A DNA stretch of 64,000 nt. Origin: Candidatus Pacearchaeota archaeon (GTDB taxonomy: Archaea > Nanobdellota > Nanobdellia > Pacearchaeales > GW2011-AR1). Of the stretch, positions 45,787 to 58,341 are shown in pieces. The position numbers and the translations under genes were made by a program. The stretch is taken from NCBI GenBank assembly GCA_038874355.1, contig JAVZCO010000001.1, forward strand, positions 159,295-223,294, read 5' to 3'. Each line of letters begins with the position of its first letter. Within the stretch, counting starts at the first letter, position 1. Below the pieces are notes generated by a model. It made no database searches, had not been told where the DNA came from, and was given only the letters and a program-made list of their open reading frames with translations.

Positions 45787-46992
45787 TTATAAATTTAAAG
45801 AATTATATATTATTTCTTTAATTTTTGGTATTATTTTTTCTGGAATAGATAATTTTATTTCACGGGTTCTTCCATGTCTGCCTTTACTTATAACTCTGGC
45901 ATTAATCAAACCTAACATATCAAATTCTGCTATTATATCAGATATTCTTCTTTGAGTTAAGATTTCGAATTTTGTTTTTTTACACAAATCATAATAAACA
46001 TTATACACATCTCCTGTAAAAATATTTTCTAATTGTTTTTTTTCTACTAAATTTATTATACTTAATAAAACAAGTTGAAATTGTTTAGGAGCAGCTTCTA
46101 TAATATCTATTATTTTATCTCTTTCTAATTTTTCTCTTGCCTCATCAACATGATCTAAAGTTACTTTTTTGCTTCCTTGTCTTTCTGCAATTTCTCCAGC
46201 AATCCTTAGTAAATCTAAAGCTCTTCTTGCATCCCCATGCTCTCTAGCAGCATAAGCAGCACATTTTGATAAAACACCTTCTCCTAAAACATTTTCATTA
46301 AAAGCATGTTCTGCTCTTTTTCTTAAAATTTCATAAAGTTGTTGTGCATTATATGGAGGAAAAACTATTTCTTCTTCAGATAAAGAACTTTTTACTCTTG
46401 GATCTATGTTATCTAAAAATTGTAAATCATTACTTATACCTATCAAACATAATTGGCTTTTTGTTAATTCAGAATTTAGTCTTGTCAAACTGTATAAAAA
46501 ATCGCTATTTATTTTTTTTACTGCTTGATCTATCTCATCTAAAATTAAAATTAATAACTGTTTTTCTTTTTCTAATATCTCAATAAATTTTGAGTATATC
46601 TGTTGTGTCGGCAAGCCAGTAATTGGAACTTCATATCCTAATTTTTTTATTATTTCTGCTAAAATCCTGTATTCTGTATCTGAAATTTTTTTTAATTTAC
46701 AATTCAGATATTCTATTTTTAAAGGAATATCTAATTTTTTTGCTCTTTCCATCATTTCTTTACTTATATATTGTATACATAATGTTTTACCAGTACCTGT
46801 TTGTCCATAAACAAATAAATTACTTGGTCTTTCTAATCTTAAAGCAGGTGCTAAGATAGAAGCAACTTGCTCTAGCTGTTTTTCTCTGTAAGGTATTTCT
46901 TCGGGATTATAATTGCTTTGTAGAATAAATTTATTTTTAAAAATAAAACTTTTAGAAACTGAATCAAAAATTTTATCTAAATTTATTGACAT
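45787..46992 (-). CDS. cdc6: Orc1/Cdc6 replication initiator
   Basis: Walker A GQTGTGKT, Walker B LILDEID, C-terminal winged helix. 1-nt gap to DP1. Confidence 0.9.
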   Translation of the reverse strand: MSINLDKIFDSVSKSFIFKNKFILQSNYNPEEIPYREKQLEQVASILAPALRLERPSNLFVYGQTGTGKTLCIQYISKEMMERAKKLDIPLKIEYLNCKLKKISDTEYRILAEIIKKLGYEVPITGLPTQQIYSKFIEILEKEKQLLILILDEIDQAVKKINSDFLYSLTRLNSELTKSQLCLIGISNDLQFLDNIDPRVKSSLSEEEIVFPPYNAQQLYEILRKRAEHAFNENVLGEGVLSKCAAYAAREHGDARRALDLLRIAGEIAERQGSKKVTLDHVDEAREKLERDKIIDIIEAAPKQFQLVLLSIINLVEKKQLENIFTGDVYNVYYDLCKKTKFEILTQRRISDIIAEFDMLGLINARVISKGRHGRTREIKLSIPEKIIPKIKEIIYNSLNL

Positions 46993-47096
46993 TTTTCTCT
47001 TTTTTATTTAATTTTAATTTTTAACAAAATGTAATATAAAATAAATATTTTTAAAGATTTGTTTCTTGTAAAATATATTTTCATTTCAAAAAATAA

Positions 47097-47124
47097 CACC
47101 AACACCTTTATTTCTCATAGAAAA
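47097..47124 (+). repeat. ORB-like element A
   Basis: CACCAACACCTTTATTTCTCATAGAAAA. 23 of 28 positions match the reverse complement of element B. Confidence 0.6.
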
Positions 47125-47204
47125 TTTCTAATAATAATTTTTCGTCGAATTTTTTTTATATAAAATATTTTTTATTATTTTAAAGTGACTTTTTTATAAA
47201 AAAC

Positions 47205-47218
47205 TTCTTATGGAAAAA
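47205..47218 (+). repeat. mini-ORB-like element
   Basis: TTCTTATGGAAAAA; compare the archaeal mini-ORB core TTCCAnTGGAAA. Confidence 0.4.
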
Positions 47219-47311
47219 ACAATAATTATACTATAAAATATATATTATACTATATTATATATTTTTAAATTAAATTAATATCACTCAATTTTTATATTTA
47301 TTTATAAATCT

Positions 47312-47339
47312 TTCTCCATAAGAAATAGAGGGGTTGGTG
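47312..47339 (-). repeat. ORB-like element B (inverted), with a G-string
   Basis: The plus strand reads TTCTCCATAAGAAATAGAGGGGTTGGTG. Its reverse complement is CACCAACCCCTCTATTTCTTATGGAGAA. Confidence 0.6.
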
Positions 47340-47428
47340 GTTTAAAAATAAAAAATTTATTATTCAAAACTTTAATAAACTTAAATATATTATTATATTT
47401 TTTAATAACTTCATAAAACCAATAAATA

Positions 47429-47463: not shown

Positions 47464-47721
47464 ATGGTTGATAAAAGACCTTTTAATGAAATAATAGGAA
47501 AGCTTGTTGTGACAAAAGAAGGAAAAAGATTAGGTATAGCAAAAGATATAACTTTTGAAACAACTACAGGTGAATTAATTCAATTAATAATAAAAGAACC
47601 AACACCATATGCAAGAAGTTTAAATTTAGAACAAACAAAAAATAAAGAAATTTTAATTCCTTATACTTCTATAATAGCCATAGGAGACTTTATAGTTGTC
47701 AGTGAAGAAGATTTTATATAA
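47464..47721 (+). CDS. PRC-barrel domain protein
   Basis: 85 aa. FNEIIGKLVVTKEGKRLGIAKDITFETTTGELIQLII. Confidence 0.65.
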   Translation: MVDKRPFNEIIGKLVVTKEGKRLGIAKDITFETTTGELIQLIIKEPTPYARSLNLEQTKNKEILIPYTSIIAIGDFIVVSEEDFI

Positions 47722-48251: not shown

Positions 48252-48422
48252 AAGTAAAAAGATAAAAGCAAATTAAATTTTTATCTGTTAATTATTTTTT
48301 ATTTGATAACTATTTTAATTATTTTTAAATAATAAAACAAAAATTTATAAATTCTTTTTTCCATAAATTATTAAGATTTCTTCTGGGGAAAGAGGTGTTT
48401 AAATAAACTTTTATTAAATAGA

Positions 48423-48650
48423 ATGGAAGAACAAAAAATAAAAAATTATATAGAAAATAAGATTTGTGGTTGTTATAATCCAAATTTTCATTTTTGTGGA
48501 TTAGTAAATTTAAAAACAGGTTGCGAAGGAAATCTAGAAAGGTGTATTAAAGATGCAATAGAAATAAGAGAAAAAAGAAAAAATAATACTAATATAAGTT
48601 GTTATAAATTAAATAAAGGAGAATGCTACGGCTGTAAAAAGCAAATATAA
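48423..48650 (+). CDS. small Cys-rich hypothetical protein
   Basis: 75 aa with 8 Cys. Lies 6 nt upstream of the aminopeptidase gene. Confidence 0.4.
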   Translation: MEEQKIKNYIENKICGCYNPNFHFCGLVNLKTGCEGNLERCIKDAIEIREKRKNNTNISCYKLNKGECYGCKKQI

Positions 48651-48656
48651 ATTAAG

Positions 48657-49736
48657 ATGCCAACTGATTTAAGAGCGAGAGAATTAGCAAAATTAGCAGT
48701 AAAATTATGTACAAAAGTCAAAAAAGGAGAAAATGTAATTATATCAGGTTCAAGTGAATCAGAGCCTTTCATAATAGAACTTTATAAACAAGTTATTCTT
48801 GCAGGAGCTCATCCAATAATAAGAATGATTCCAAATAATATATCAGATTTCTTTTATAAATATGCTAATGAAGAACAATTAAAAAATTTTCCTAAATATT
48901 GGTTTGATACAGTTAAATCAGCACAAGTTTATATTGGAATCTATACAGATTTGAATACAAGAGAATTAACCTCTGTAAATTCAGAAAGAATCTCTATAAG
49001 AAAAAAAATATTAAATCCAATTTCTGATTATATAGTAAACAATAGAGACAAAATAAGAAGATTAACTATAGCTTATCCTTGTTTGGCTCATGCAATAGAA
49101 GCTGAAATGTCTTTAACAGAATGGGAAAATTTTGTATACTCTTCTTGTTTGCAAAACTGGCCTGTTTTAATAAGAAAGATGAAAAAAATAAGAAAATTAT
49201 TCAAAGAAGGTTCTTTTGTTCATTTAATTGGCCCTAATTTAGATTTAAAATTCAGGGTTCATGGAGAAAAAGCAGTATGTGATACAAATACTTTTGAAAA
49301 TATGCCTGCTGGAGAAATTTTTATGGCACCATTTAAAGAAAGTTTAAATGGATGGGTAAAATTTGACTATCCTGCAATAGAAGCTGGAAAAGAAGTTTCT
49401 GGTATTTATTTAGAATTCAAAGAAGGAAAAGTTGTAAATGCAAGAGCAGAAAAAAATCAAAATCATCTTTATTCTTTATTAAATATAGATGAAAATGCAA
49501 AATATGTAGGAGAATTTGGAATTGGATGTAATCCAAAAATAAATAAGTTTACTAAAAATTTATTATTTGACGAAAAAATTGAAGGAACAATACATCTTGC
49601 TTTAGGAATGTCTTATAAAGAAAATGGTTCATATAATAATTCTGCCTTACACTGGGATCTTGTAAAAGATATGAAAAATGGAAAGATAATTGTTGATAAT
49701 AAAGTTATTCAAAGTAAAGGGATTTGGAGAATATAG
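48657..49736 (+). CDS. M29-family aminopeptidase (AmpS/PepS-like)
   Basis: PAGEIFMAP, GEFGIGCNP, DEKIEGTIHLALG. Confidence 0.75.
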   Translation: MPTDLRARELAKLAVKLCTKVKKGENVIISGSSESEPFIIELYKQVILAGAHPIIRMIPNNISDFFYKYANEEQLKNFPKYWFDTVKSAQVYIGIYTDLNTRELTSVNSERISIRKKILNPISDYIVNNRDKIRRLTIAYPCLAHAIEAEMSLTEWENFVYSSCLQNWPVLIRKMKKIRKLFKEGSFVHLIGPNLDLKFRVHGEKAVCDTNTFENMPAGEIFMAPFKESLNGWVKFDYPAIEAGKEVSGIYLEFKEGKVVNARAEKNQNHLYSLLNIDENAKYVGEFGIGCNPKINKFTKNLLFDEKIEGTIHLALGMSYKENGSYNNSALHWDLVKDMKNGKIIVDNKVIQSKGIWRI

Positions 49737-50451
49737 ATTTTATATTTTTTAATTTTCCGAAATCATATAAATTATTATCATCACTTATAGCATAAATATT
49801 AAAATTTTCTTTATTAATTTTAAAATCTAAATTTAAATCTTCATTTTCAAATATATCAACTCCTTCTACTAAAGGAAAAAAGCTTGGAAGAATTATAACT
49901 TTTTTACTTTTATATTTCCCGATTAAAAAACACTTATATTTTTCTTTTTTTACATATTTTTTTATTGTTATTGCTGGATGATTATGCCCAACAATCCAGA
50001 ACTTTATTTTTTTATTAAATAATTCCTTAAAAATTTTATTTCCATGAAAAAAAGCATATTCTTTTTCGATATGAAAGTCTTTTATAATTACTTTTAACTT
50101 TTTTATTAGATATTCTAAAGAATTGTCATGATTTCCTTTAATCAAAATAATTTCTTTACAATTTTGTTTTAGTAAATATAAAATTTCTAAAATCTCCTCT
50201 TTTTCATTTTTATTTATTCTGCCAAAATCATGTTTTAAATCCCCTAATATTAAAATTTTATTTGGCTTTGTCTTATTTAAAATATAAAATATATCTTTTT
50301 TTATTTCTTCTTTAATAATTTTAGGTACAAAAAAACCATTTTTTAAAAAAATTTGTTCATATCCTACATGTAAATCACTAATAACTAAAATCTTCTCTTT
50401 TATTAAAAATAAAGATTTTCCAATAATTTTTATATTTTTATCTAATATCAT
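49705..50451 (-). CDS. binuclear metallophosphoesterase (SbcD/Mre11-related, Lhr-associated MPE type)
   Basis: ISDLHVGYE, ILGDLKHDF, GNHD, GHNHP. Downstream of lhr on the same strand. Confidence 0.75.
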   Translation of the reverse strand: MILDKNIKIIGKSLFLIKEKILVISDLHVGYEQIFLKNGFFVPKIIKEEIKKDIFYILNKTKPNKILILGDLKHDFGRINKNEKEEILEILYLLKQNCKEIILIKGNHDNSLEYLIKKLKVIIKDFHIEKEYAFFHGNKIFKELFNKKIKFWIVGHNHPAITIKKYVKKEKYKCFLIGKYKSKKVIILPSFFPLVEGVDIFENEDLNLDFKINKENFNIYAISDDNNLYDFGKLKNIKSIFSKSLYFE

Positions 50452-50488
50452 AATCCTATGAATATAGAAAACTTAATAAAAATAACTT

Positions 50489-50797
50489 TTATTTTTTATA
50501 AGAAATTATTATTTTTTTATTATTTCCTTCTTCTTCATAAATTGTAAATTCGTTCATAATTCCTATTTCTATTTCCAATTTACTTTGTTTAAATTGTATA
50601 TCTTTTATATTACTTCCATAAATATAGATTTTGTAATACCCAAAATTTAGATTTTCTTTTTTATCTTTTATATATGCATAACAAGAATAATCTCCATTCT
50701 TATTAAAATTTTTTATTATATTTTCTAATTTTTTCAATTTTCCATTTATACTTTCCTCACTATATTTTGTTATTAATAAAAAATTGTTTTTTTTCAT
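50489..50797 (-). CDS. hypothetical protein between lhr and the MPE gene
   Basis: 102-aa ORF on the operon strand. No family recognised. Confidence 0.4.
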   Translation of the reverse strand: MKKNNFLLITKYSEESINGKLKKLENIIKNFNKNGDYSCYAYIKDKKENLNFGYYKIYIYGSNIKDIQFKQSKLEIEIGIMNEFTIYEEEGNNKKIIISYKK

Positions 50798-50869
50798 AAT
50801 TTTAAAATAGAAAGATAGTTTAAAAATAAATCTATTTTATAAAAAATATATTATAAGCATTACAATTAT

Positions 50870-53470
50870 TTATAAATTTTTTATAGAGTTCTTTTTTATT
50901 TCTTCATAAACTCTCTTAATGAAATTTAATTTATCTTCTATTTTTATAATATCATAATAACTCTGTAAAATTAAATTTATAGCAAATGGACTACATATCC
51001 TTGTTTCCTTAAATTCTATTTTAATATCTTTATTTTTTATCCAATTAATAACTTTTTTTGCATTTTTTATATCCATAACATCTTCTAATATTTCTCTCCT
51101 TGTTTCTTTCAAAATAGGAAAATTATTATCTAATCTTCTCACGCTATCAATTAAAAAAGAAGATTTTAATTGTAATTTTGCAATAGATTTTTTATTACCT
51201 TTATAATTCCTTAATATCGTCAAAGCACGAGAAGCACAATGTCTAAATCTTCTTTTTAATATCTCTGATTTTTCAATCGCTTCTTTTAAAATTTCTTCTA
51301 AGTTATTTTCATTAATAAAATTTAAAGTTTTTTCAATTTTTTCCTTATTTATATTTTCCCCAATTAAATAAAAGCCATTATCATTTATTCCAATCTCAAT
51401 ATCCCTTACATTTTGTTTCGCTAAAATAAAAGCAATAGCTCTTGATAAAGCATCATTCACTCTTCTTCCAAATAAAGAATGAAAAATATAATAATTTTTT
51501 TCTACCTTATAATTTTCTATTATTATTTTATTTAAATGAGGAATACCAATATAATCATTTTGTAATAAAAAATAATTATAAATTTCCTCTGCTATTTCTT
51601 TTTTTATATAACAAAATTTTTCAATAAATTTAATAATATCTTCTTTTTCTTCTTTGTTTATTCTTTCATTAATTAATTTTCTGAATCTTTGTATGTCTAA
51701 AGCAAGGTCAAAAGATAAAGGTAAAATTTCTGAAAACCAAGAAGGAATCGTAGGAGGCCTATCAATAGTTTGGCTAACATATAATTTCATTCCTCTACTA
51801 AACATATATACATATTTATTACCACCCAAAACAAAAACGTCCCCTTTCTTCATTCTCTCAAAAAAACTTTCATCTATATTTCCTATTTTTATTTCTTTTC
51901 CATCTTTTCTTAAGATAACAGAAATAAAAGATTCTTCTGGTATTGTTCCTATATTTGTCATGTATATCATTCTTGCCAATTTTCCCTTTTTACCTATTTC
52001 TCCTGTTTTTTCATCATACCAAATTTTTGCATAAACTCTTTTATCTTCTAAAGCATATTCTCCAGCTAAATAAGATATAACAGAAAGAAAATCTTCATAA
52101 CTTAAGTATTTATAACAATAACTCCCTCTAATTATATTAAACATATCTTTTATATTATATTTTTTTGTTATAGCCATTCCATAGATATGTTGGGACAAAA
52201 CATCTAAGCAGTTTTTAGGAATTTCTACATTATCTATTTTTCTTTCTATTATATTCTTTAACATTATACTACATTCTACTAAATCATCTTTATCTAAAAC
52301 AATAAATCTTCCTTTGATAGTGTCATGTAATTTATGACCGGCCCTTCCTATTCTTTGTAATGCTCTTGCAACAGATTTTGGGCTTCCTAATAAAATCACC
52401 ATATCTATATAGCCTATATCTATTCCTAACTCTAAACTTGTAGAAGACACAATAACTTTTAATTTTCCTTCTCTTAATTTCTTTTCAATATCAAATCTAT
52501 ACTCTCTACTTAAACTTCCATGATGAGCACCTATATCATCTAAATATTTATTTGGAAAAATTTCTTTTAAGTGATTTACAACTCTTTCGGTAGCACTTCT
52601 TGTATTTGTAAATATTAAGGTAGTCTTATTTTGTTGTATTAAATTATCAATTACCTCATAAAGATATTTATTTATTTCTTTATTTTCATTAAAAATATCA
52701 CCAATATATAAAACATTAACATCCAATTTTTTTTCAAAATTAACATTTGCTATTACACATTCGTTAGAGCTTCCAATTAAAAATTTAGCTATTTCTTCTA
52801 AAGGAGATATTGTAGCAGATAACCCTATTCTAACAAAATCATAACTTATTTCCTTTAATCTTTCTAAGCTCAATGATAAATGTGTGCCTCTTTTATTAGC
52901 TAAAGAATGAATCTCGTCTATAATTACATATTCTACATTATCTAATTTTTCAATAAACTTTTTTGAAGTTATTATTATAGAAAGAGTTTCTGGAGTGGTT
53001 ATTAATATATGTGGAGGTTTTTTTAACTGCTCTTGTCTTTCCTTTATTGTTGTGTCTCCTGTTCTTAACGAAATTCTTATTTTTTGCAGTTTTATATTTC
53101 TTTTTTTTGCTATTTCTTCTATTTCATTTAAAGGAGTTATTAAATTTACATATATATCATTACTTAATGCTCTTAAAGGAGAAGTATATATGACATAAAC
53201 TTTATCTTCCAATTCATTTTTTTCAGCAAGAATAATAAGATAATTTAAAATGCTTAAAAAAGCAGTAAGAGTTTTTGTTCCACCAGTAGGAGCAGAAATC
53301 AAAGTATTTTTTCTTTTCCATATAGGAATAACACCATATAGTTGCGTTTTACTAAAATTTTCAAATTTTGAAAAAAACCATTCTTTAACTAAAGGGTGTA
53401 AAATTTCATTTATTTTTTCTTTGCTTACCTCTTTGGCATATTCTATTTTATATTCTTCCATTTTAATCAA
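50870..53470 (-). CDS. lhr: Lhr-family ATP-dependent DEAD/DEAH helicase
   Basis: HPLVKEWF, APTGGTKT, IIDEIHSL, SAT, QRIGRAGH, and a long C-terminal DEAD-associated region. Confidence 0.85.
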   Translation of the reverse strand: MIKMEEYKIEYAKEVSKEKINEILHPLVKEWFFSKFENFSKTQLYGVIPIWKRKNTLISAPTGGTKTLTAFLSILNYLIILAEKNELEDKVYVIYTSPLRALSNDIYVNLITPLNEIEEIAKKRNIKLQKIRISLRTGDTTIKERQEQLKKPPHILITTPETLSIIITSKKFIEKLDNVEYVIIDEIHSLANKRGTHLSLSLERLKEISYDFVRIGLSATISPLEEIAKFLIGSSNECVIANVNFEKKLDVNVLYIGDIFNENKEINKYLYEVIDNLIQQNKTTLIFTNTRSATERVVNHLKEIFPNKYLDDIGAHHGSLSREYRFDIEKKLREGKLKVIVSSTSLELGIDIGYIDMVILLGSPKSVARALQRIGRAGHKLHDTIKGRFIVLDKDDLVECSIMLKNIIERKIDNVEIPKNCLDVLSQHIYGMAITKKYNIKDMFNIIRGSYCYKYLSYEDFLSVISYLAGEYALEDKRVYAKIWYDEKTGEIGKKGKLARMIYMTNIGTIPEESFISVILRKDGKEIKIGNIDESFFERMKKGDVFVLGGNKYVYMFSRGMKLYVSQTIDRPPTIPSWFSEILPLSFDLALDIQRFRKLINERINKEEKEDIIKFIEKFCYIKKEIAEEIYNYFLLQNDYIGIPHLNKIIIENYKVEKNYYIFHSLFGRRVNDALSRAIAFILAKQNVRDIEIGINDNGFYLIGENINKEKIEKTLNFINENNLEEILKEAIEKSEILKRRFRHCASRALTILRNYKGNKKSIAKLQLKSSFLIDSVRRLDNNFPILKETRREILEDVMDIKNAKKVINWIKNKDIKIEFKETRICSPFAINLILQSYYDIIKIEDKLNFIKRVYEEIKKNSIKNL

Positions 53471-53580: not shown

Positions 53581-53841
53581 ATGAAACTTTCTCAAAACAA
53601 AAAAGAAAAAATACAAGAACAAATAATATCTTATTTATTAACTATTTACCCTTCTTCTAAATTTACCGCAGAAATTGCAAGAGAAATTGCAAGAGACGAA
53701 GAATTTACACTAAAATTATTAAAAGATTTAGAAGAAAAAAGAATAGTTTCAAAAATAGTAAAAAATCCAAAAGGAAAGCCTTATTCAAAAAGAATTAGAT
53801 GGTGTTTATCTAAACAAGCTTATTTTGCTTATCAGAGTTAA
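53581..53841 (+). CDS. small winged-helix DNA-binding protein (start revised)
   Basis: MKLSQNKKEKIQEQIISYLL...FTAEIAREIARDEEFTLKLLKDLEEKRIV...PYSKRIRW. The track's upstream extension is F/I-rich and overlaps the lhr 5' region. Confidence 0.55.
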   Translation: MKLSQNKKEKIQEQIISYLLTIYPSSKFTAEIAREIARDEEFTLKLLKDLEEKRIVSKIVKNPKGKPYSKRIRWCLSKQAYFAYQS

Positions 53842-53895: not shown

Positions 53896-54750
53896 ATGGA
53901 TAAAATAAAAAAATCTTTTCAAAAAGTAAAAGAGGATATCTTTTTTTTAGGAGAAAAAATCTCAAAATTAGAAGAATCTATTTCTAAAATTAATTCGTTT
54001 TTAGAAATAATAAATAAGGAGATAACAGAATTAAAACTAAATATATTAGAAAATAATTCAAAAATAAAAAATAAAAATAATAATTTATTTATTCCAACAC
54101 AAAAAGAAAAAATACAGACAAATAACAGTGATATAAAGACAAATAAAGAAGATTCGGCAGATAAAATATATTTTAAAGGCTTAAAAAAAGAAAATTATAA
54201 TGTTTCCATAGGAAATAATGGGGTTCCAACAGACAGACAGACAGACAGACAGACAAACGAACAAACAAAAAATATAGAAGAAAATAATAAAAAAATAAAT
54301 AAAATAGATAATAAAAATAATATTAGTGAAATATCAGTAGTGCCTAATTACTATAAAGAAAAATATAAAAATTTAAATGTAGTGGATAAAAATAAAGAAA
54401 ACATAACAATAAAAAATGATTTTGAAGAAATATTAAAAATATTAAATAGTTTAGATATCATAAAAAAAGAAATAAGAAACAAATTTAAAAGATTAACAGA
54501 ACAAGAATTTAAGGTTTTTTCTTATATTTATGATTTAGAGGAAAAAGGATTTTTAGTAGATTATAAATTACTTTCAGAAAAATTAAATTTGACAGAATCT
54601 TCCGTAAGAGATTACGTAGGAAAATTAATAAAAAAAGGAATTCCTATAATAAAAGAAAAAATAAATAATAAACAGGTCATTCTTCATATAAGTAAAGAAC
54701 TAAAGGAAGTAACACCTTTAGAAACAATAATTAAATTAAGAAATATTTAA
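53896..54750 (+). CDS. coiled-coil / low-complexity linker / C-terminal winged-helix protein (start revised to ATG)
   Basis: N-terminus KSFQKVKEDIFFLGEKISKLEE, linker PTDRQTDRQTNEQT, C-terminus LTEQEFKVFSYIYDLEEKGFLVDYKLLSEKLNLTESSVRDYVGKLIKKG. Confidence 0.6.
   Translation: MDKIKKSFQKVKEDIFFLGEKISKLEESISKINSFLEIINKEITELKLNILENNSKIKNKNNNLFIPTQKEKIQTNNSDIKTNKEDSADKIYFKGLKKENYNVSIGNNGVPTDRQTDRQTNEQTKNIEENNKKINKIDNKNNISEISVVPNYYKEKYKNLNVVDKNKENITIKNDFEEILKILNSLDIIKKEIRNKFKRLTEQEFKVFSYIYDLEEKGFLVDYKLLSEKLNLTESSVRDYVGKLIKKGIPIIKEKINNKQVILHISKELKEVTPLETIIKLRNI
54229..54252 (+). repeat. (ACAG)x6 tetranucleotide repeat inside a CDS
   Basis: Six perfect ACAG units followed by the degenerate ACAAACGAACAAACA. 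Confidence 0.9.
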
Positions 54751-55072
54751 AAAATTAATTATAATTATTAAAAGTTCGTTTTAAATTTATTAATATTATT
54801 AATATAAATTATAAATTATGATAATATATTTATGTTAATATTATTCGTTGTAACGATTATTTAATTATTAATATCTTATATTATAAAATGATCTATATAT
54901 ATTTCTATTATTAAGCCTTATAAATAAAAAATTTTTACATTTTATTTAATTCTCTAACTTTCTTAATATCTAAATTTTTAAATAACACAATTATTAATTA
55001 ATTTAATTTTTTATTTTTTAAGCTTTAAAAAGCTATTTTTTTATTTCACACTTTTTATTTTTTTATTAATTA

Positions 55073-55708
55073 TCACTCAATTTCCTCTATTTTTTCACTT
55101 TTTTTCTTTTTATTATCTCTCACTTTTACGTTTTTTAATATTCTTTCTTTTATACTATCCTCTATAAATATCCTTTTTTTACCATTTTTTTCAATTATCT
55201 CTTGAATTAAACCCTCACTTTTCTGTTTTATTGAGTTTATTTGCCCTCTTATAGTAGCTCTTGTTTTTCCCATCATTGCAGCAAGATCATCATAACTTAA
55301 TTTTAGGTCTGTATTTAACAATACCCAAATTATTGCTCTTTCCATAGCACTAAAATTCTTAAAAATGCCATAAACACCTGTTTGAACAGGTGTTTGAACA
55401 CCTAAACAAACACCTTCAACAGCTGTTTGTTTTTCAATTTTTTGAACAGGTGTTTTAAACAGCTGTTTAAACAGCTCTTTATCAATAGTATCAACAATAT
55501 TTTTTAATCCTTCTATTTCATTTTTTATCGACGATATTTGCTGTTTTATATCAGAAATATCATTTTCTATTTTTTCATCCTTCTTATTCAAATGTTCAAC
55601 CCACAAACCAAGGTTGTTTATATCCTTTTTTACAGCTTCAAAGCTTCTTTTTATCTCCTCTTTCTTTATTTCTTCATCTTTTTTTCTTTTAAATATCCAT
55701 CTAAACAT
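55073..55708 (-). CDS. coiled-coil / QT-rich linker / C-terminal winged-helix protein, paralog of 53896-54750
   Basis: N-terminus IKRSFEAVKKDINNLGLWVEHL, linker FKTPVQKIEKQTAVEGVCLGVQTPVQTGV, C-terminus FSAMERAIIWVLLNTDLKLSYDDLAAMMGKTRATIRGQINSI. Confidence 0.6.
   Translation of the reverse strand: MFRWIFKRKKDEEIKKEEIKRSFEAVKKDINNLGLWVEHLNKKDEKIENDISDIKQQISSIKNEIEGLKNIVDTIDKELFKQLFKTPVQKIEKQTAVEGVCLGVQTPVQTGVYGIFKNFSAMERAIIWVLLNTDLKLSYDDLAAMMGKTRATIRGQINSIKQKSEGLIQEIIEKNGKKRIFIEDSIKERILKNVKVRDNKKKKSEKIEEIE
55372..55395. repeat. inverted repeat inside a CDS (11-bp arms, 2-nt spacer)
   Basis: AAACACCTGTT-TG-AACAGGTGTTT. Confidence 0.8.
55454..55471. repeat. 18-bp perfect palindrome TTTAAACAGCTGTTTAAA inside a CDS
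   Basis: Identical to 55885-55902 in the upstream tandem repeat. Confidence 0.85.
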
Positions 55709-55730
55709 AATTTAATCACATAAATATTAT

Positions 55731-55744
55731 TTATAAATCTTTTT
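55731..55744 (-). promoter_or_regulatory. BRE/TATA-like box
   Basis: The minus strand reads AAAAAGATTTATAA, centred about 27 nt upstream of the ATG at 55708. Confidence 0.5.
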
Positions 55745-55848
55745 ATTTTTCAATTTTTCGTCGTATTTATTATAAAATTTTATTTAAAAAATATTTAATT
55801 TTTTATAAAAAAGATAAATGTTTATTCTTATAATCGATATATATAAAA

Positions 55849-55948
55849 AGCTGTTTAAACACCCTTAAACACCATAAAATTTTATTTAAACAGCTGTTTA
55901 AACACCCTTAAACACCATAAAATTTTATTTAAACACCTTTAAACACCC
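55849..55948. repeat. 43-bp tandem direct repeat, about 2.3 copies
   Basis: Units at 55849-55891 and 55892-55934 are identical (AGCTGTTTAAACACCCTTAAACACCATAAAATTTTATTTAAAC), followed by a partial third unit. Rich in TAAACACC half-sites. Confidence 0.85.
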
Positions 55949-56243
55949 TATATTATAAAATAAATTAAAAAATCTTTTAAATTTTATTAAAAATAGGTTA
56001 AAATTAATAAAAATATTATTTTTAAGAATAATTGATAAGTGTATTAAAAAATATTTTTTTAATAAAAAGATTTTTAAATTAAAATTAATTATTATAAGTA
56101 AAGTAATTAATTAAATAAAATAATATAAATTTGATAAATAAAAAAAGATTTGATAAGTTTTGATTATTTACTGATAATAAGATTATTAAATAATAGGGTT
56201 ATTAATTTATTTATAATAAAAAGATTTAATGATAAAATTGAAA

Positions 56244-56478: not shown

Positions 56479-56519
56479 ATTTTATTGACTTTAGATTAGT
56501 TTATTTAAATTTTTATTTT

Positions 56520-56542
56520 CACTTAGGTGACCTTAGTTAAAA
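56520..56542. repeat. inverted repeat, left copy (contains the near-palindrome CTTAGGTGACCTTAG)
   Basis: CACTTAGGTGACCTTAGTTAAAA. 20 of 23 positions match the reverse complement of 56762-56784. Confidence 0.7.
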
Positions 56543-56761: not shown

Positions 56762-56784
56762 TTTTAACTAAGTTAACCTTAGTG
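56762..56784. repeat. inverted repeat, right copy (contains the near-palindrome CTAAGTTAACCTTAG)
   Basis: TTTTAACTAAGTTAACCTTAGTG. Confidence 0.7.
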
Positions 56785-56889
56785 CAAAAAAATAAAAATA
56801 TTAATAACCTATAGTAGAAAAAATTAGAAAAATAATAAAAAGTTCGCACAAGAGTTATTAAACGAACCATTATTTATAATAAAATTTGA

Positions 56890-56923: not shown

Positions 56924-57739
56924 ATGAAAAAAGAGGAATTCATAGAAAAATTAGAAGTTGAATTAAAATTAACTAAAAAATCTGAACTAACAATAAGAAA
57001 CTACAAATATTTTAATTTAAAATTTTTAGAATATTGTAATAAAGATATAGAGCAATTAACAAAAGATGATGTAAAAAAATTTTTAGCTTATATTTCTGAA
57101 AAAAGCCCAAATTCCATACTTCTAGCAATATCAGCAATAAAATTTTCAACATTAAAAATTTTAGGTAAAGACTTAACAGAAAATATAGAAAGGCCTAAAA
57201 AAGAAAAATCTTTGCCAAAAGTATTAACAAAAGAAGAAATAAAAAAATTGATAGAAACTATAGAAACAAAAAAATCAAAATTAATAGTAAAATTCCTTTA
57301 TAGTACTGGCTTGCGAGTTTCAGAATTAGTTAATCTTAAAAAAGAAGATATAAACTTTCAAGAAAGAATAGGAATAGTTAAAAAAGGAAAGGGAAAAAAA
57401 GATAGAATCTTTATACTTTCAGAAAAACTTGCTAATGATTTACAAGAATACCTTAATAATAATCAAGAAAATCTTTATCTTTTTTCTAAAGAAAAACCAT
57501 TAACAACAAGAAACATACAGAAGATTATAAAAAAGACAGCAGAAAAAGCACAAATAAACAAAAAAGTAACTCCTCATGTACTAAGACATAGTTTTGCCAC
57601 TCATTTATTAGAATCAGGAACAGATATAAGATTTATTCAGACTTTATTAGGGCATGAAAATCTTAATACAACCCAAATTTATACTCATGTAAATACCCAA
57701 GAACTTAAAAAAATAAAAAATCCATTAGATGATTTATAA
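56924..57739 (+). CDS. tyrosine recombinase (XerA/integrase family)
   Basis: SAM-like N-domain. GLRVSELVNL (Arg I) and HVLRHSFATHLLESGTDIRFIQTLLGHENLNTTQIYTHV (H-x-x-R ... Y). Confidence 0.85.
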   Translation: MKKEEFIEKLEVELKLTKKSELTIRNYKYFNLKFLEYCNKDIEQLTKDDVKKFLAYISEKSPNSILLAISAIKFSTLKILGKDLTENIERPKKEKSLPKVLTKEEIKKLIETIETKKSKLIVKFLYSTGLRVSELVNLKKEDINFQERIGIVKKGKGKKDRIFILSEKLANDLQEYLNNNQENLYLFSKEKPLTTRNIQKIIKKTAEKAQINKKVTPHVLRHSFATHLLESGTDIRFIQTLLGHENLNTTQIYTHVNTQELKKIKNPLDDL

Positions 57740-57741
57740 AA

Positions 57742-58341
57742 ATGTATATATCAAATTCATTAAAAAAAGAGATTTTAGAAAGAGACAACTTTAGTTGCCA
57801 AAAATGTTTTTATAAAGGTGATGAAGAAAATCTAAAAATTCACATAATAAATAAAGAAAAAAAGCCATCTAAAGAAAATCTAATTACTTTATGTGAAATA
57901 TGTAATAATTATGCTCCAACAAAAGAAGAAGAATTTAAAGAATATATAAGAGAAAAGATAAATTCTGATATTTTAGAAACATTTAGGAAATATAGAAAAA
58001 ATAACCCAAATATTGAAGGAATGAATAAAAAATTTGAAGATGGAAATATAATAACAAGACCACCATTAGGATATAAAATAATTGATAAAAAACTTGTTGT
58101 TGATGAAGAAAAAAAATTGATTGTCCAGGAAATATTTCAAACCTTCTTAAATGAAAATATAAGCTTAAATAAATTAGCGAAAAAATATAATTTATCTGTT
58201 AATGGATTAAAAAAAATATTGAAAAATTTTGTTTATGTTGGAAAGATAAAATTTAAAGGAAATTTAATAGACGGAAAACATCCACTTTTAATTTCTCATG
58301 AAATTTTTAATAGAGTTCAAAAAAAATTAGAAGAAAAATAA
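57742..58341 (+). CDS. HNH-like zinc-finger plus serine-recombinase 'Recombinase' domain protein, with no resolvase catalytic domain
   Basis: N-terminus RDNFSCQKC...NLITLCEICNN. C-terminus PPLGYKIIDKKLVVDEEKKLIVQEIFQTFLNENISLNKLAKKYN...VGKIKFKG...HPLLISHEIFNRVQ. Confidence 0.55.
   Translation: MYISNSLKKEILERDNFSCQKCFYKGDEENLKIHIINKEKKPSKENLITLCEICNNYAPTKEEEFKEYIREKINSDILETFRKYRKNNPNIEGMNKKFEDGNIITRPPLGYKIIDKKLVVDEEKKLIVQEIFQTFLNENISLNKLAKKYNLSVNGLKKILKNFVYVGKIKFKGNLIDGKHPLLISHEIFNRVQKKLEEK

Follow-up and report, generated by a model that had tools for sequence, protein, structure and literature searches.

A predicted winged-helix gene of Pacearchaeota with one DNA motif arrayed in its linker-coding segment and again upstream of its promoter

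Palindromic sites are known inside coding sequences, such as parS inside spo0J (parB) of Bacillus subtilis, near the origin, or the galOI operator inside galE. Palindromic DNA can also be translated in frame, as in Rickettsia palindromic elements (RPEs), and in phage lambda the hinge between the domains of the O protein is encoded by the ori region. The iterons of lambda ori lie inside the O initiator gene, where extra iterons just add residues to the protein (PMC7466680). In Pyrococcus, a cluster of origin recognition boxes (ORBs) and mini-ORBs bound by Cdc6/Orc1, with a core TTCC...GAA accompanied or not by a G-string, is found inside the dp1 gene (PMC1904270). Here, we describe a gene of a Candidatus Pacearchaeota archaeon (hereafter gene X), whose linker-coding segment consists largely of an array of short DNA motifs that also occurs upstream of its promoter. 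It lies in a 64-kb stretch of that genome, which we call the window.

The window has a GC content of 22.8% and contains an intron-containing tRNA; the nearest named relatives of its proteins belong to Candidatus Pacearchaeota (DPANN archaea), and its sequence was found in hot-spring metagenomes, while a look for RNA runs of this organism turned up none. Counts over orthologous loci refer to 80 genome loci (L001-L080) of 5-7 kb each, and the window is the part of this genome that the analysis covered. These loci are related by descent, so that per-locus counts are not independent events, while synonymous saturation elsewhere in gene X indicates that they diverged deeply.

Gene X and its two motif arrays

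The features on which the argument turns are the following.

55073 to 55708, minus strand: gene X, encoding 211 residues that begin with a long helix, continue with a disordered linker and carry a winged helix at the C-terminus (from the open reading frame, homologs, AlphaFold2 and Foldseek)
55840 to 55949, no strand: site A, the upstream array, a 43-bp tandem repeat in 2.6 copies (Tandem Repeats Finder), at -141 to -240 from the ATG
55369 to 55481, no strand: site B, the intragenic array, about 8 half-sites SSTGTTY, mostly 12 bp apart, encoding the linker ELFKQLFKTPVQ...QTPVQTGV
55727 to 55743, minus strand: promoter of X, with AAAAAGATTTATAAATA on the sense strand resembling a transcription factor B recognition element and TATA box (BRE/TATA), the TATA box at about -28 to -19

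The translation of gene X contains ...ELFKQLFKTPVQKIEKQTAVEGVCLGVQTPVQTGV..., and its AlphaFold2 model, built like the protein alignment on 29 orthologs, consists of one long helix (residues 2-84), a segment of predicted local distance difference test score below 50 (residues 80-112) and a winged helix (residues 121-192). A reading of the window from its letters alone (the sequence-only reading) had taken this for a winged helix-turn-helix (wHTH) gene, and the model bears it out: the solved folds nearest to the C-terminus according to Foldseek are the wHTH proteins AbfR2/Lrs14, MepR/MarR and SmtB/ArsR. The residues encoded by the motif array, 80-112, coincide with the disordered linker of the model. 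The linker (KQLFKT....KQTAVxxVQxxVQTxVQTG) is among the best-conserved segments of X, and the ortholog alignment showed that it is no insertion.

The family is small, with 186 representative clusters at E <= 1e-3 among 1.84 billion proteins; the 1,752 homologs of X that were found belong to Pacearchaeota wherever they are named. Scans of X against Pfam, NCBIfam and PADLOC gave helix-turn-helix and coiled-coil matches below threshold only, including a weak match to HTH_11, and hence no curated family, while a sequence-profile search of the PDB returned coiled coils only. The literature that we searched contained no description of this family, nor of replication origins in Pacearchaeota.

The palindromes, tandem units, reading frame and linker reported in the sequence-only reading were all recovered. 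The 18-mer TTTAAACAGCTGTTTAAA is present exactly at 55454-55471, within X, and at 55885-55902, upstream of it, with a two-mismatch copy at 55842; these three matches in the window compare with 0.05 expected from shuffles. TAAACACC has 11 copies in the window, 7 of them within 55371-55947, where 1.0 was expected. Within X, the inverted repeat AAACACCTGTT-TG-AACAGGTGTTT occupies 55372-55395, and there are further AACAGSTGTT copies. What had been described as palindromes in the gene, at 55372-55395 and 55454-55471, are indeed there, but they are not isolated: they belong to a 12-13-bp tandem array that Tandem Repeats Finder detected at 55440-55481 and that continues in more copies down to 55369.

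We describe the motif at three levels: a half-site AAACASC/GSTGTTT, a decamer AACASSTGTT and a core hexamer CASSTG. In the window, 18 of the 33 half-sites fall in 55360-55960. Site A holds eight half-sites (GGTGTTT or GCTGTTT on the sense strand of X) and one full palindrome; read from 55849, its units 55849-55891 and 55892-55934 are identical and are followed by a partial third. In the best-matching metagenome run, site A was broken into short high-depth unitigs, as repeats are expected to be. As for variation in repeat copy number, metagenome contigs provided one instance, from a related population in another hot-spring metagenome, in which a 31-bp deletion (55908-55938) leaves site A with two fewer half-sites.

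The same arrangement was found across the orthologous loci. The decamer reaches densities of 4.8 per kb in gene X and 2.3 per kb in the 500 nt upstream of it, whereas the 500 nt downstream hold no copy and the remaining 334 kb, outside the X locus, have 0.05 per kb. Half-sites are similarly concentrated upstream (12.9 per kb, against 0.57 per kb elsewhere), and at least three of them lie within 300 nt upstream of the gene in 74 of 77 loci, as opposed to 12 of 1,111 control windows (1%). These upstream arrays have a median position of -215 to -124, their half-sites mostly read GSTGTTT on the sense strand, and a spacing of 10 bp is the most frequent (81 cases), ahead of 13 and 12 bp; within the gene, the spacing across loci is 12 bp. 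The linker with its DNA motif occupies the same position in 80 of 80 loci, with nucleotide-level conservation of site B in up to 68 of the 80.

In 63 of 78 orthologous loci, a TTTA[AT]A sequence has its first base between -30 and -26. In archaeal promoter geometry, this position of the TATA box implies that the mRNA of X is leaderless or nearly so and that the upstream array lies outside the transcript. Sites A and B thus flank the predicted promoter, at about -170 and +285 (site B spanning +220 to +340).

We also noted single extended copies of the X motif (SCTGTTTAAACAGCTGTTT) in other genes 2-2.8 kb upstream of X, where they encode KQLFKQ (loci L003, L012, L017, L034, L048, L050, L058 and L068); the host genes encode a HAD-type hydrolase, a serine recombinase and an Xer-like integrase. 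By a rough estimate, the motif is about ten times commoner outside the X locus than composition predicts, and these copies could be further targets or chance occurrences.

Selection on the linker DNA and a motif switch in a sister clade

The linker DNA is near-identical in the 80 loci, synonymous positions included, reading AAA CAG [C/G]TG TTT AAA ACA and (GTY CAA ACA SST)x3. Its codons depart strongly from those used in the other open reading frames of the window and of the loci, which served as background.

Gln-Leu: CAG-CTG in 37 of 38 linker cases; background CTG 1% (window) or 5% (loci) of Leu
Gln-Val: CAG-GTG in 30 of 32 linker cases; background GTG 4-11% of Val
Ala: GCT in 116 of 117 linker cases; background 32-42%
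Gly: GGT in 90 of 92 linker cases; background 18-27%
Pro: CCT in 20 of 21 linker cases; background 38-46%

Among identical residues, third-position identity was 0.87 in the linker, as compared with 0.67 for the coiled coil and 0.58 for the winged helix, and many conserved residues of X outside the linker are synonymously saturated. The amino acid substitutions seen in the linker (Leu for Val or the reverse; Ala, Gly and Pro for one another) are exactly those that preserve CASSTG. Moreover, AACASSTGTT is read in two frames within X, as KQ[L/V]F in 59 cases and as QT[A/G/P]V in 180, so that a single DNA motif explains two different 'conserved peptides'. An unbiased scan for 11-mers of the window (45-59.5 kb) that are common to the 80 loci pointed to the same segments: its hits in 54-56 kb were the linker, the upstream array, two other short motifs of X and one segment of a paralogous gene, together with weaker coding matches within X. 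Judging from this codon use and frame usage, the linker is conserved at the DNA level and not merely as a peptide; peptide-level selection alone is rejected by both.

A search of representative sequences then revealed distant homologs with other linker peptides, for example FMNVQSFMNVQT, which define a sister clade (clade 2; clade 1 being that of gene X) sampled here by 43 metagenome loci with 25 distinct genes. They are positional orthologs of X, with the same paralog, the same small wHTH gene and the same gene for a 140-residue protein downstream. The recognition helix is VT[IV]RRHINDIKK in clade 2 and ATIRGQINSIKQK in clade 1, and the linker DNA of clade 2 is an array of another motif, CGTTCA, often as the palindrome CGTTCATGAACG. 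In these linkers, CGTTCA is read in all three frames (54, 42 and 49 cases), yielding RSI; SFM, SFN or AFN; and NVQ, RVQ or IVH. The step from one copy to the next is 8 or 10 bp, out of codon phase, and the copies draw on rare codons (CGT, 9% of Arg; TCG, 3% of Ser; GCG, 5% of Ala). CGTTCA is also found 40-140 bp upstream of the start, with 10-bp spacing and upstream of the promoter, in 11 of the 25 distinct genes; upstream DNA contains 3.7 copies per kb, compared with 0.10 per kb elsewhere.

Recognition helix and motif, the latter both in the gene and upstream, therefore differ together between the two clades, while within each clade the helix of X is invariant and so is the motif. A motif that switches along with the protein is what one would predict for the target of a DNA-binding protein encoded at the locus, in a family whose design combines a site array in the linker-coding DNA with another at the promoter.

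Proposed autoregulation and the alternatives

With modest confidence, we favor the explanation that both arrays are operator or iteron sites on double-stranded DNA that are bound by X itself, in a circuit of negative autoregulation. X would oligomerise through its N-terminal helix, as a coiled coil, and read half-sites GSTGTTT(AAA) with its C-terminal winged helix, overlapping half-sites forming the palindrome AAACAGSTGTTT. The two arrays, of about 5-8 half-sites each, lie about 120-220 bp upstream and at +220 to +340, around the TATA box and the predicted leaderless start; X would bind both cooperatively and, bridged by its coiled coil, loop out about 450 bp of promoter DNA and repress its own transcription, with the intragenic array possibly acting as a transcription roadblock too. 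The array could have settled in the coding sequence because this stretch encodes a disordered linker, in which the amino acids would be free for the DNA motif to dictate, so that the linker peptide (KQLFKT...KQTAV..VQTxVQTxVQT) would largely be the read-through translation of a site array. Two arrays flanking a leaderless promoter fit autoregulation, probably by looping. That X is the binder, that it binds cooperatively, and that looping and repression follow, we infer from sequence and comparison.

The sequence-only reading had proposed separately that these repeats are operator or iteron sites for the encoded protein and that the DNA serves as both code and binding site. The comparative data support both proposals, which merge into one: the DNA that encodes the linker is very probably also a docking site for the encoded protein. 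Its variant of an element origin was not supported in the sense of a mobile element, X being a syntenic chromosomal core gene; a scan of viral contigs with the motif gave one match only, to an unrelated high-GC phage in which it codes by chance for LFKQVF.

Several observations weigh against autoregulation by X. The upstream array is present in only 11 of the 25 clade 2 genes, and an upstream site is thus not obligatory. In clade 1, the GG/GC make-up of upstream half-sites correlates only weakly with that of intragenic ones (rho 0.24, p 0.04). Either the paralog or the small wHTH protein could be the binder in place of X, as could some other factor whose divergence ran in parallel, and the conserved proximity to the replication origin (oriC) may point to a role beyond autoregulation. 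Finally, two further motifs are embedded in gene X and shared with its flanks, TATCGWCGATA and AAAGTGAG, and a simple one-protein operator does not explain them. In the window, these motifs are represented as follows.

55758 to 55763, no strand: TCGTCG element just upstream of the BRE/TATA, counterpart of TTATCGTCGAAAA at about -50 in orthologs
55526 to 55536, no strand: palindrome TATCGACGATA in the coding sequence of X (I-S-S-I, residues 58-61), a motif also present in the upstream region of orthologs
55047 to 55221, minus strand: three copies of AAAGTG[A/T]G, at 55119-55126 (K-V-R), 55214-55221 (K-S-E-G) and 55047-55054 (just past the stop)

TCGWCG has only three copies in the 64 kb, at 47142-47147 (in the AT-rich core of the probable oriC), 55528 and 55758, and 30 of 78 loci have it between -60 and -41. 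At the TATCGACGATA site, TCG-TCG codons are used in 92-93% of cases against a background of 7%, and the 11-mer is conserved in 34 loci; in orthologs, TTATCG[T/A]CGATAAA is found near the upstream array and at about -50. The three copies of AAAGTG[A/T]G are the only ones in the window; across orthologs this motif is read in two frames (KVRV 76, KSEG 48), and most loci have one to three copies just past the stop codon. Written as AAAAGTGAG[A/G]G, this motif is confined to the sense strand, two of its copies lying in the 3' coding part of X.

The first rival explanation concerns the gene neighborhood. The conserved cluster of the 80 loci comprises X, a convergent paralog (76 loci), a small wHTH gene (72 loci; about 53581-53841 in the window), the gene for the 140-residue protein, a PRC-barrel gene and orc1/cdc6; by its conserved synteny next to orc1/cdc6, X is a chromosomal core gene.

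53896 to 54750, plus strand: paralog, coiled coil, linker and wHTH, convergent with X, syntenic in 76 of 80 loci
45787 to 46992, minus strand: orc1/cdc6, followed by the gene for the small subunit of DNA polymerase D
47470 to 47718: PRC-barrel gene
47094 to 47343, no strand: probable oriC, with two ORB-like elements in inverted orientation (47094-47125 and 47311-47343) on either side of an AT-rich stretch, lying between orc1/cdc6 and the PRC-barrel gene

The region between orc1 and the PRC-barrel gene is the probable oriC, with ORB-like elements AACACCAACACCTTTATTTCTCATAGAAAA / TTTCTCCATAAGAAATAGAGGGGTTGGTGGTTT and the same layout in 14 other orthologous loci; GC skew tracked gene orientation and was uninformative. 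In the window, 8.5 kb separate this region from X, and in most genomes the distance is 3-4 kb. As a side observation, compared with the majority of related genomes the window has about 5 kb extra at 48300-53470, between the gene for the 140-residue protein and the small wHTH gene, with genes for an M29 peptidase, an SbcD-related phosphoesterase, a small open reading frame and an Lhr-type helicase. The linker DNA of the paralog (54203-54258) carries an ORB-like element, TTTCCATAGGAAAT-AAT-GGGGTT, followed by (CAGA)n; it is conserved at the nucleotide level in up to 69 of 80 loci and resembles the ORBs at oriC. Across loci, this element reads TTTCCAnnGGAAAT-nnn-GGGGTT, like the ORBs beside orc1 (loci L001-L080 and L085-L119). 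In clade 1, the 4-nt repeat of the paralog takes the form (CAGA)n; clade 2 sublineages, between which the recognition helix of the paralog also differs, have (CAAT)n, (CATT)n, (CACT)n or another short repeat in that place. A search for k-mers common to the paralog gene and intergenic DNA found nothing comparable to X.

Given this setting, the arrays might be iterons of an origin-proximal replication or segregation complex, instead of or besides operators, with the sites partly in X's own gene. We regard this as possible but unlikely. X is syntenic with orc1/cdc6 and with a canonical ORB-flanked origin; the paralog linker DNA holds the ORB-like element in both clades, TCGWCG is confined to oriC and the X locus in the 64 kb, and the iteron-like 10-bp phasing and the long coiled coil of X would suit such a complex, for which there are precedents (PMC7466680, PMC1904270) as well as analogies in lambda O with ori-lambda and ParB with parS in spo0J. 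Against these stand the classical origin, with inverted ORBs and an AT-rich stretch, that is already beside orc1, and the lack of any conserved gene for a partition ATPase or a helicase loader in the cluster. No unwinding element stood out from DNA of 23% GC, and the X motif lacks the ORB core TTCC...GAA (PMC1904270). The idea that the X motif is itself an ORB was rejected on that same ground, GSTGTTTAAACA being without this core whereas the element of the paralog has it. A bolder conjecture, to which we also give a low probability, is that X and its paralog might form an undescribed archaeal 'self-sited' class, in which a coiled coil and a wHTH are joined by a linker that translates the protein's own site array, and that with Orc1 on the ORB of the paralog they might build an origin-proximal centromere-like or licensing platform in DPANN, the genes themselves being that platform.

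The arrays might instead be bound by another protein, with X as the regulated target: the paralog, the small wHTH protein or Orc1/Cdc6. Three wHTH genes are conserved side by side, the recognition helix of the paralog varies between lineages, so that co-variation is not exclusive to X, and some ORBs at oriC are followed by GGTGTTT. Yet the motif clusters only in and before X, and not in or before the paralog or the small wHTH gene; the paralog has embedded motifs of its own that are different, and it is the invariant helix of X that pairs with an invariant motif within each clade. We consider this explanation rather improbable.

It is very improbable that the conservation reflects a feature of the RNA, either hairpins formed by the palindromes or the site of an RNA-binding factor. 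The linker RNA of the window does fold better than shuffles (-43.5 kcal/mol, z = -5.7), although any set of palindromes would give such a single-sequence fold, and the third motif, AAAGTGAG, is strictly strand-specific and located in the 3' part of the transcript. However, RNAalifold on 40 orthologs gave a consensus of -1.5 kcal/mol with 0 compensatory pairs; only 29 of 66 adjacent motif units are pair-compatible, GG-GG neighbors, which cannot pair, being the commonest; and the same motif is arrayed upstream of the TATA box, outside the predicted transcript, with 10-bp helical phasing. An RNA structure was therefore rejected as the cause of conservation, there being no conserved fold or covariation across orthologs. 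Rfam gave no match in the window or in 10 loci.

To the last alternative, that the linker is a peptide repeat under protein selection or an RPE-like in-frame element, as the sequence-only reading had also suggested, and that the upstream copies are coincidental or remnants, we give next to no credit: although the KQTAVxxVQTxVQT peptide is strongly conserved and in-frame insertion of palindromic repeats is known from Rickettsia, the linker has its synonymous positions fixed contrary to background codon use, a single motif whose spacings are no multiples of 3 yields two different peptides in clade 1 and three of them in clade 2, the orthologs that conserve the linker peptide keep the palindromes with it, always at that one position, which rules out an RPE-like insertion, no dispersed copy of the 18-mer was found in the 64 kb outside the X locus, and upstream arrays accompany the gene in 74 of 77 loci.

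Two further observations concern the upstream side of X. An element (T)GCACTWAGGTTAnCTTWGT, which had no Rfam match, is found in the window at 56519-56540 (plus strand) and 56766-56790 (minus strand) and in 78 copies in the 80 loci (1-4 per locus), in constant orientation 200-1700 nt upstream of X and often beside the motif array; genes that run leftward apparently have it upstream of their TATA boxes. In addition, 56924-58341 contains a gene for an Xer-like tyrosine recombinase and an open reading frame with HNH-like and 'Recombinase' domains; related recombinase genes lie on the upstream side of X in 15-21 of the 80 loci.

Comparison with known systems

If autoregulation by X is correct, this locus would be a clean natural case of dual-purpose DNA, in which a site array took over the sequence of a flexible linker. 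It would also offer a directly testable regulator-site pair in DPANN archaea, which are uncultured and whose regulation is almost entirely uncharacterised, and the origin-adjacent cluster may bear on the control of replication or segregation in reduced genomes. A more general caution is that selection on DNA can, as a by-product, make a low-complexity linker look strongly conserved as 'protein'.

Gene X resembles lambda O in that a site array lies amid the coding sequence, with a tandem phased spacing that is 12 bp in clade 1 and 8 or 10 bp in clade 2, binding by X being predicted. It differs from lambda O in that X is an archaeal chromosomal core gene and not a phage gene, in having a second array upstream of its promoter, in its architecture of a coiled coil plus a C-terminal wHTH and in a motif that differs between clades. 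As in Pyrococcus dp1, origin-proximal sites lie in coding DNA and are conserved across genomes, and the paralog has such an element (TTCC..GGAAA plus G-string), but the motif of X (GSTGTTT / AAACAGSTGTTT) lacks the ORB core, and the dp1 sites serve a protein encoded elsewhere.

The likeness to parS and galOI consists in a palindromic site within a coding sequence (for parS, in its own gene and near the origin) and in a pair of upstream and intragenic sites that permits looping. Those are single sites on ordinary coding sequence, whereas the array of X is the whole linker segment, is read in several frames and imposes the peptide. RPEs are dispersed, mobile and variable among orthologs, unlike the array of X, which is fixed in every ortholog, undispersed and matched by an upstream array. 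With the autoregulators of the MarR/ArsR/Lrs14 type (AbfR2, ST1710), X shares the C-terminal fold and palindromic sites near its own promoter; it departs from AbfR2 and ST1710 by its long coiled coil and disordered linker and by arrays of 5-8 half-sites instead of a single dyad. Binding sites within the gene of their own protein were already known; what appears to be new here, as far as sequence comparison tells, is a DPANN core family in which such an array makes up the whole linker code, is read in two to three frames, is paired with an array at the promoter and switches its motif together with the protein.

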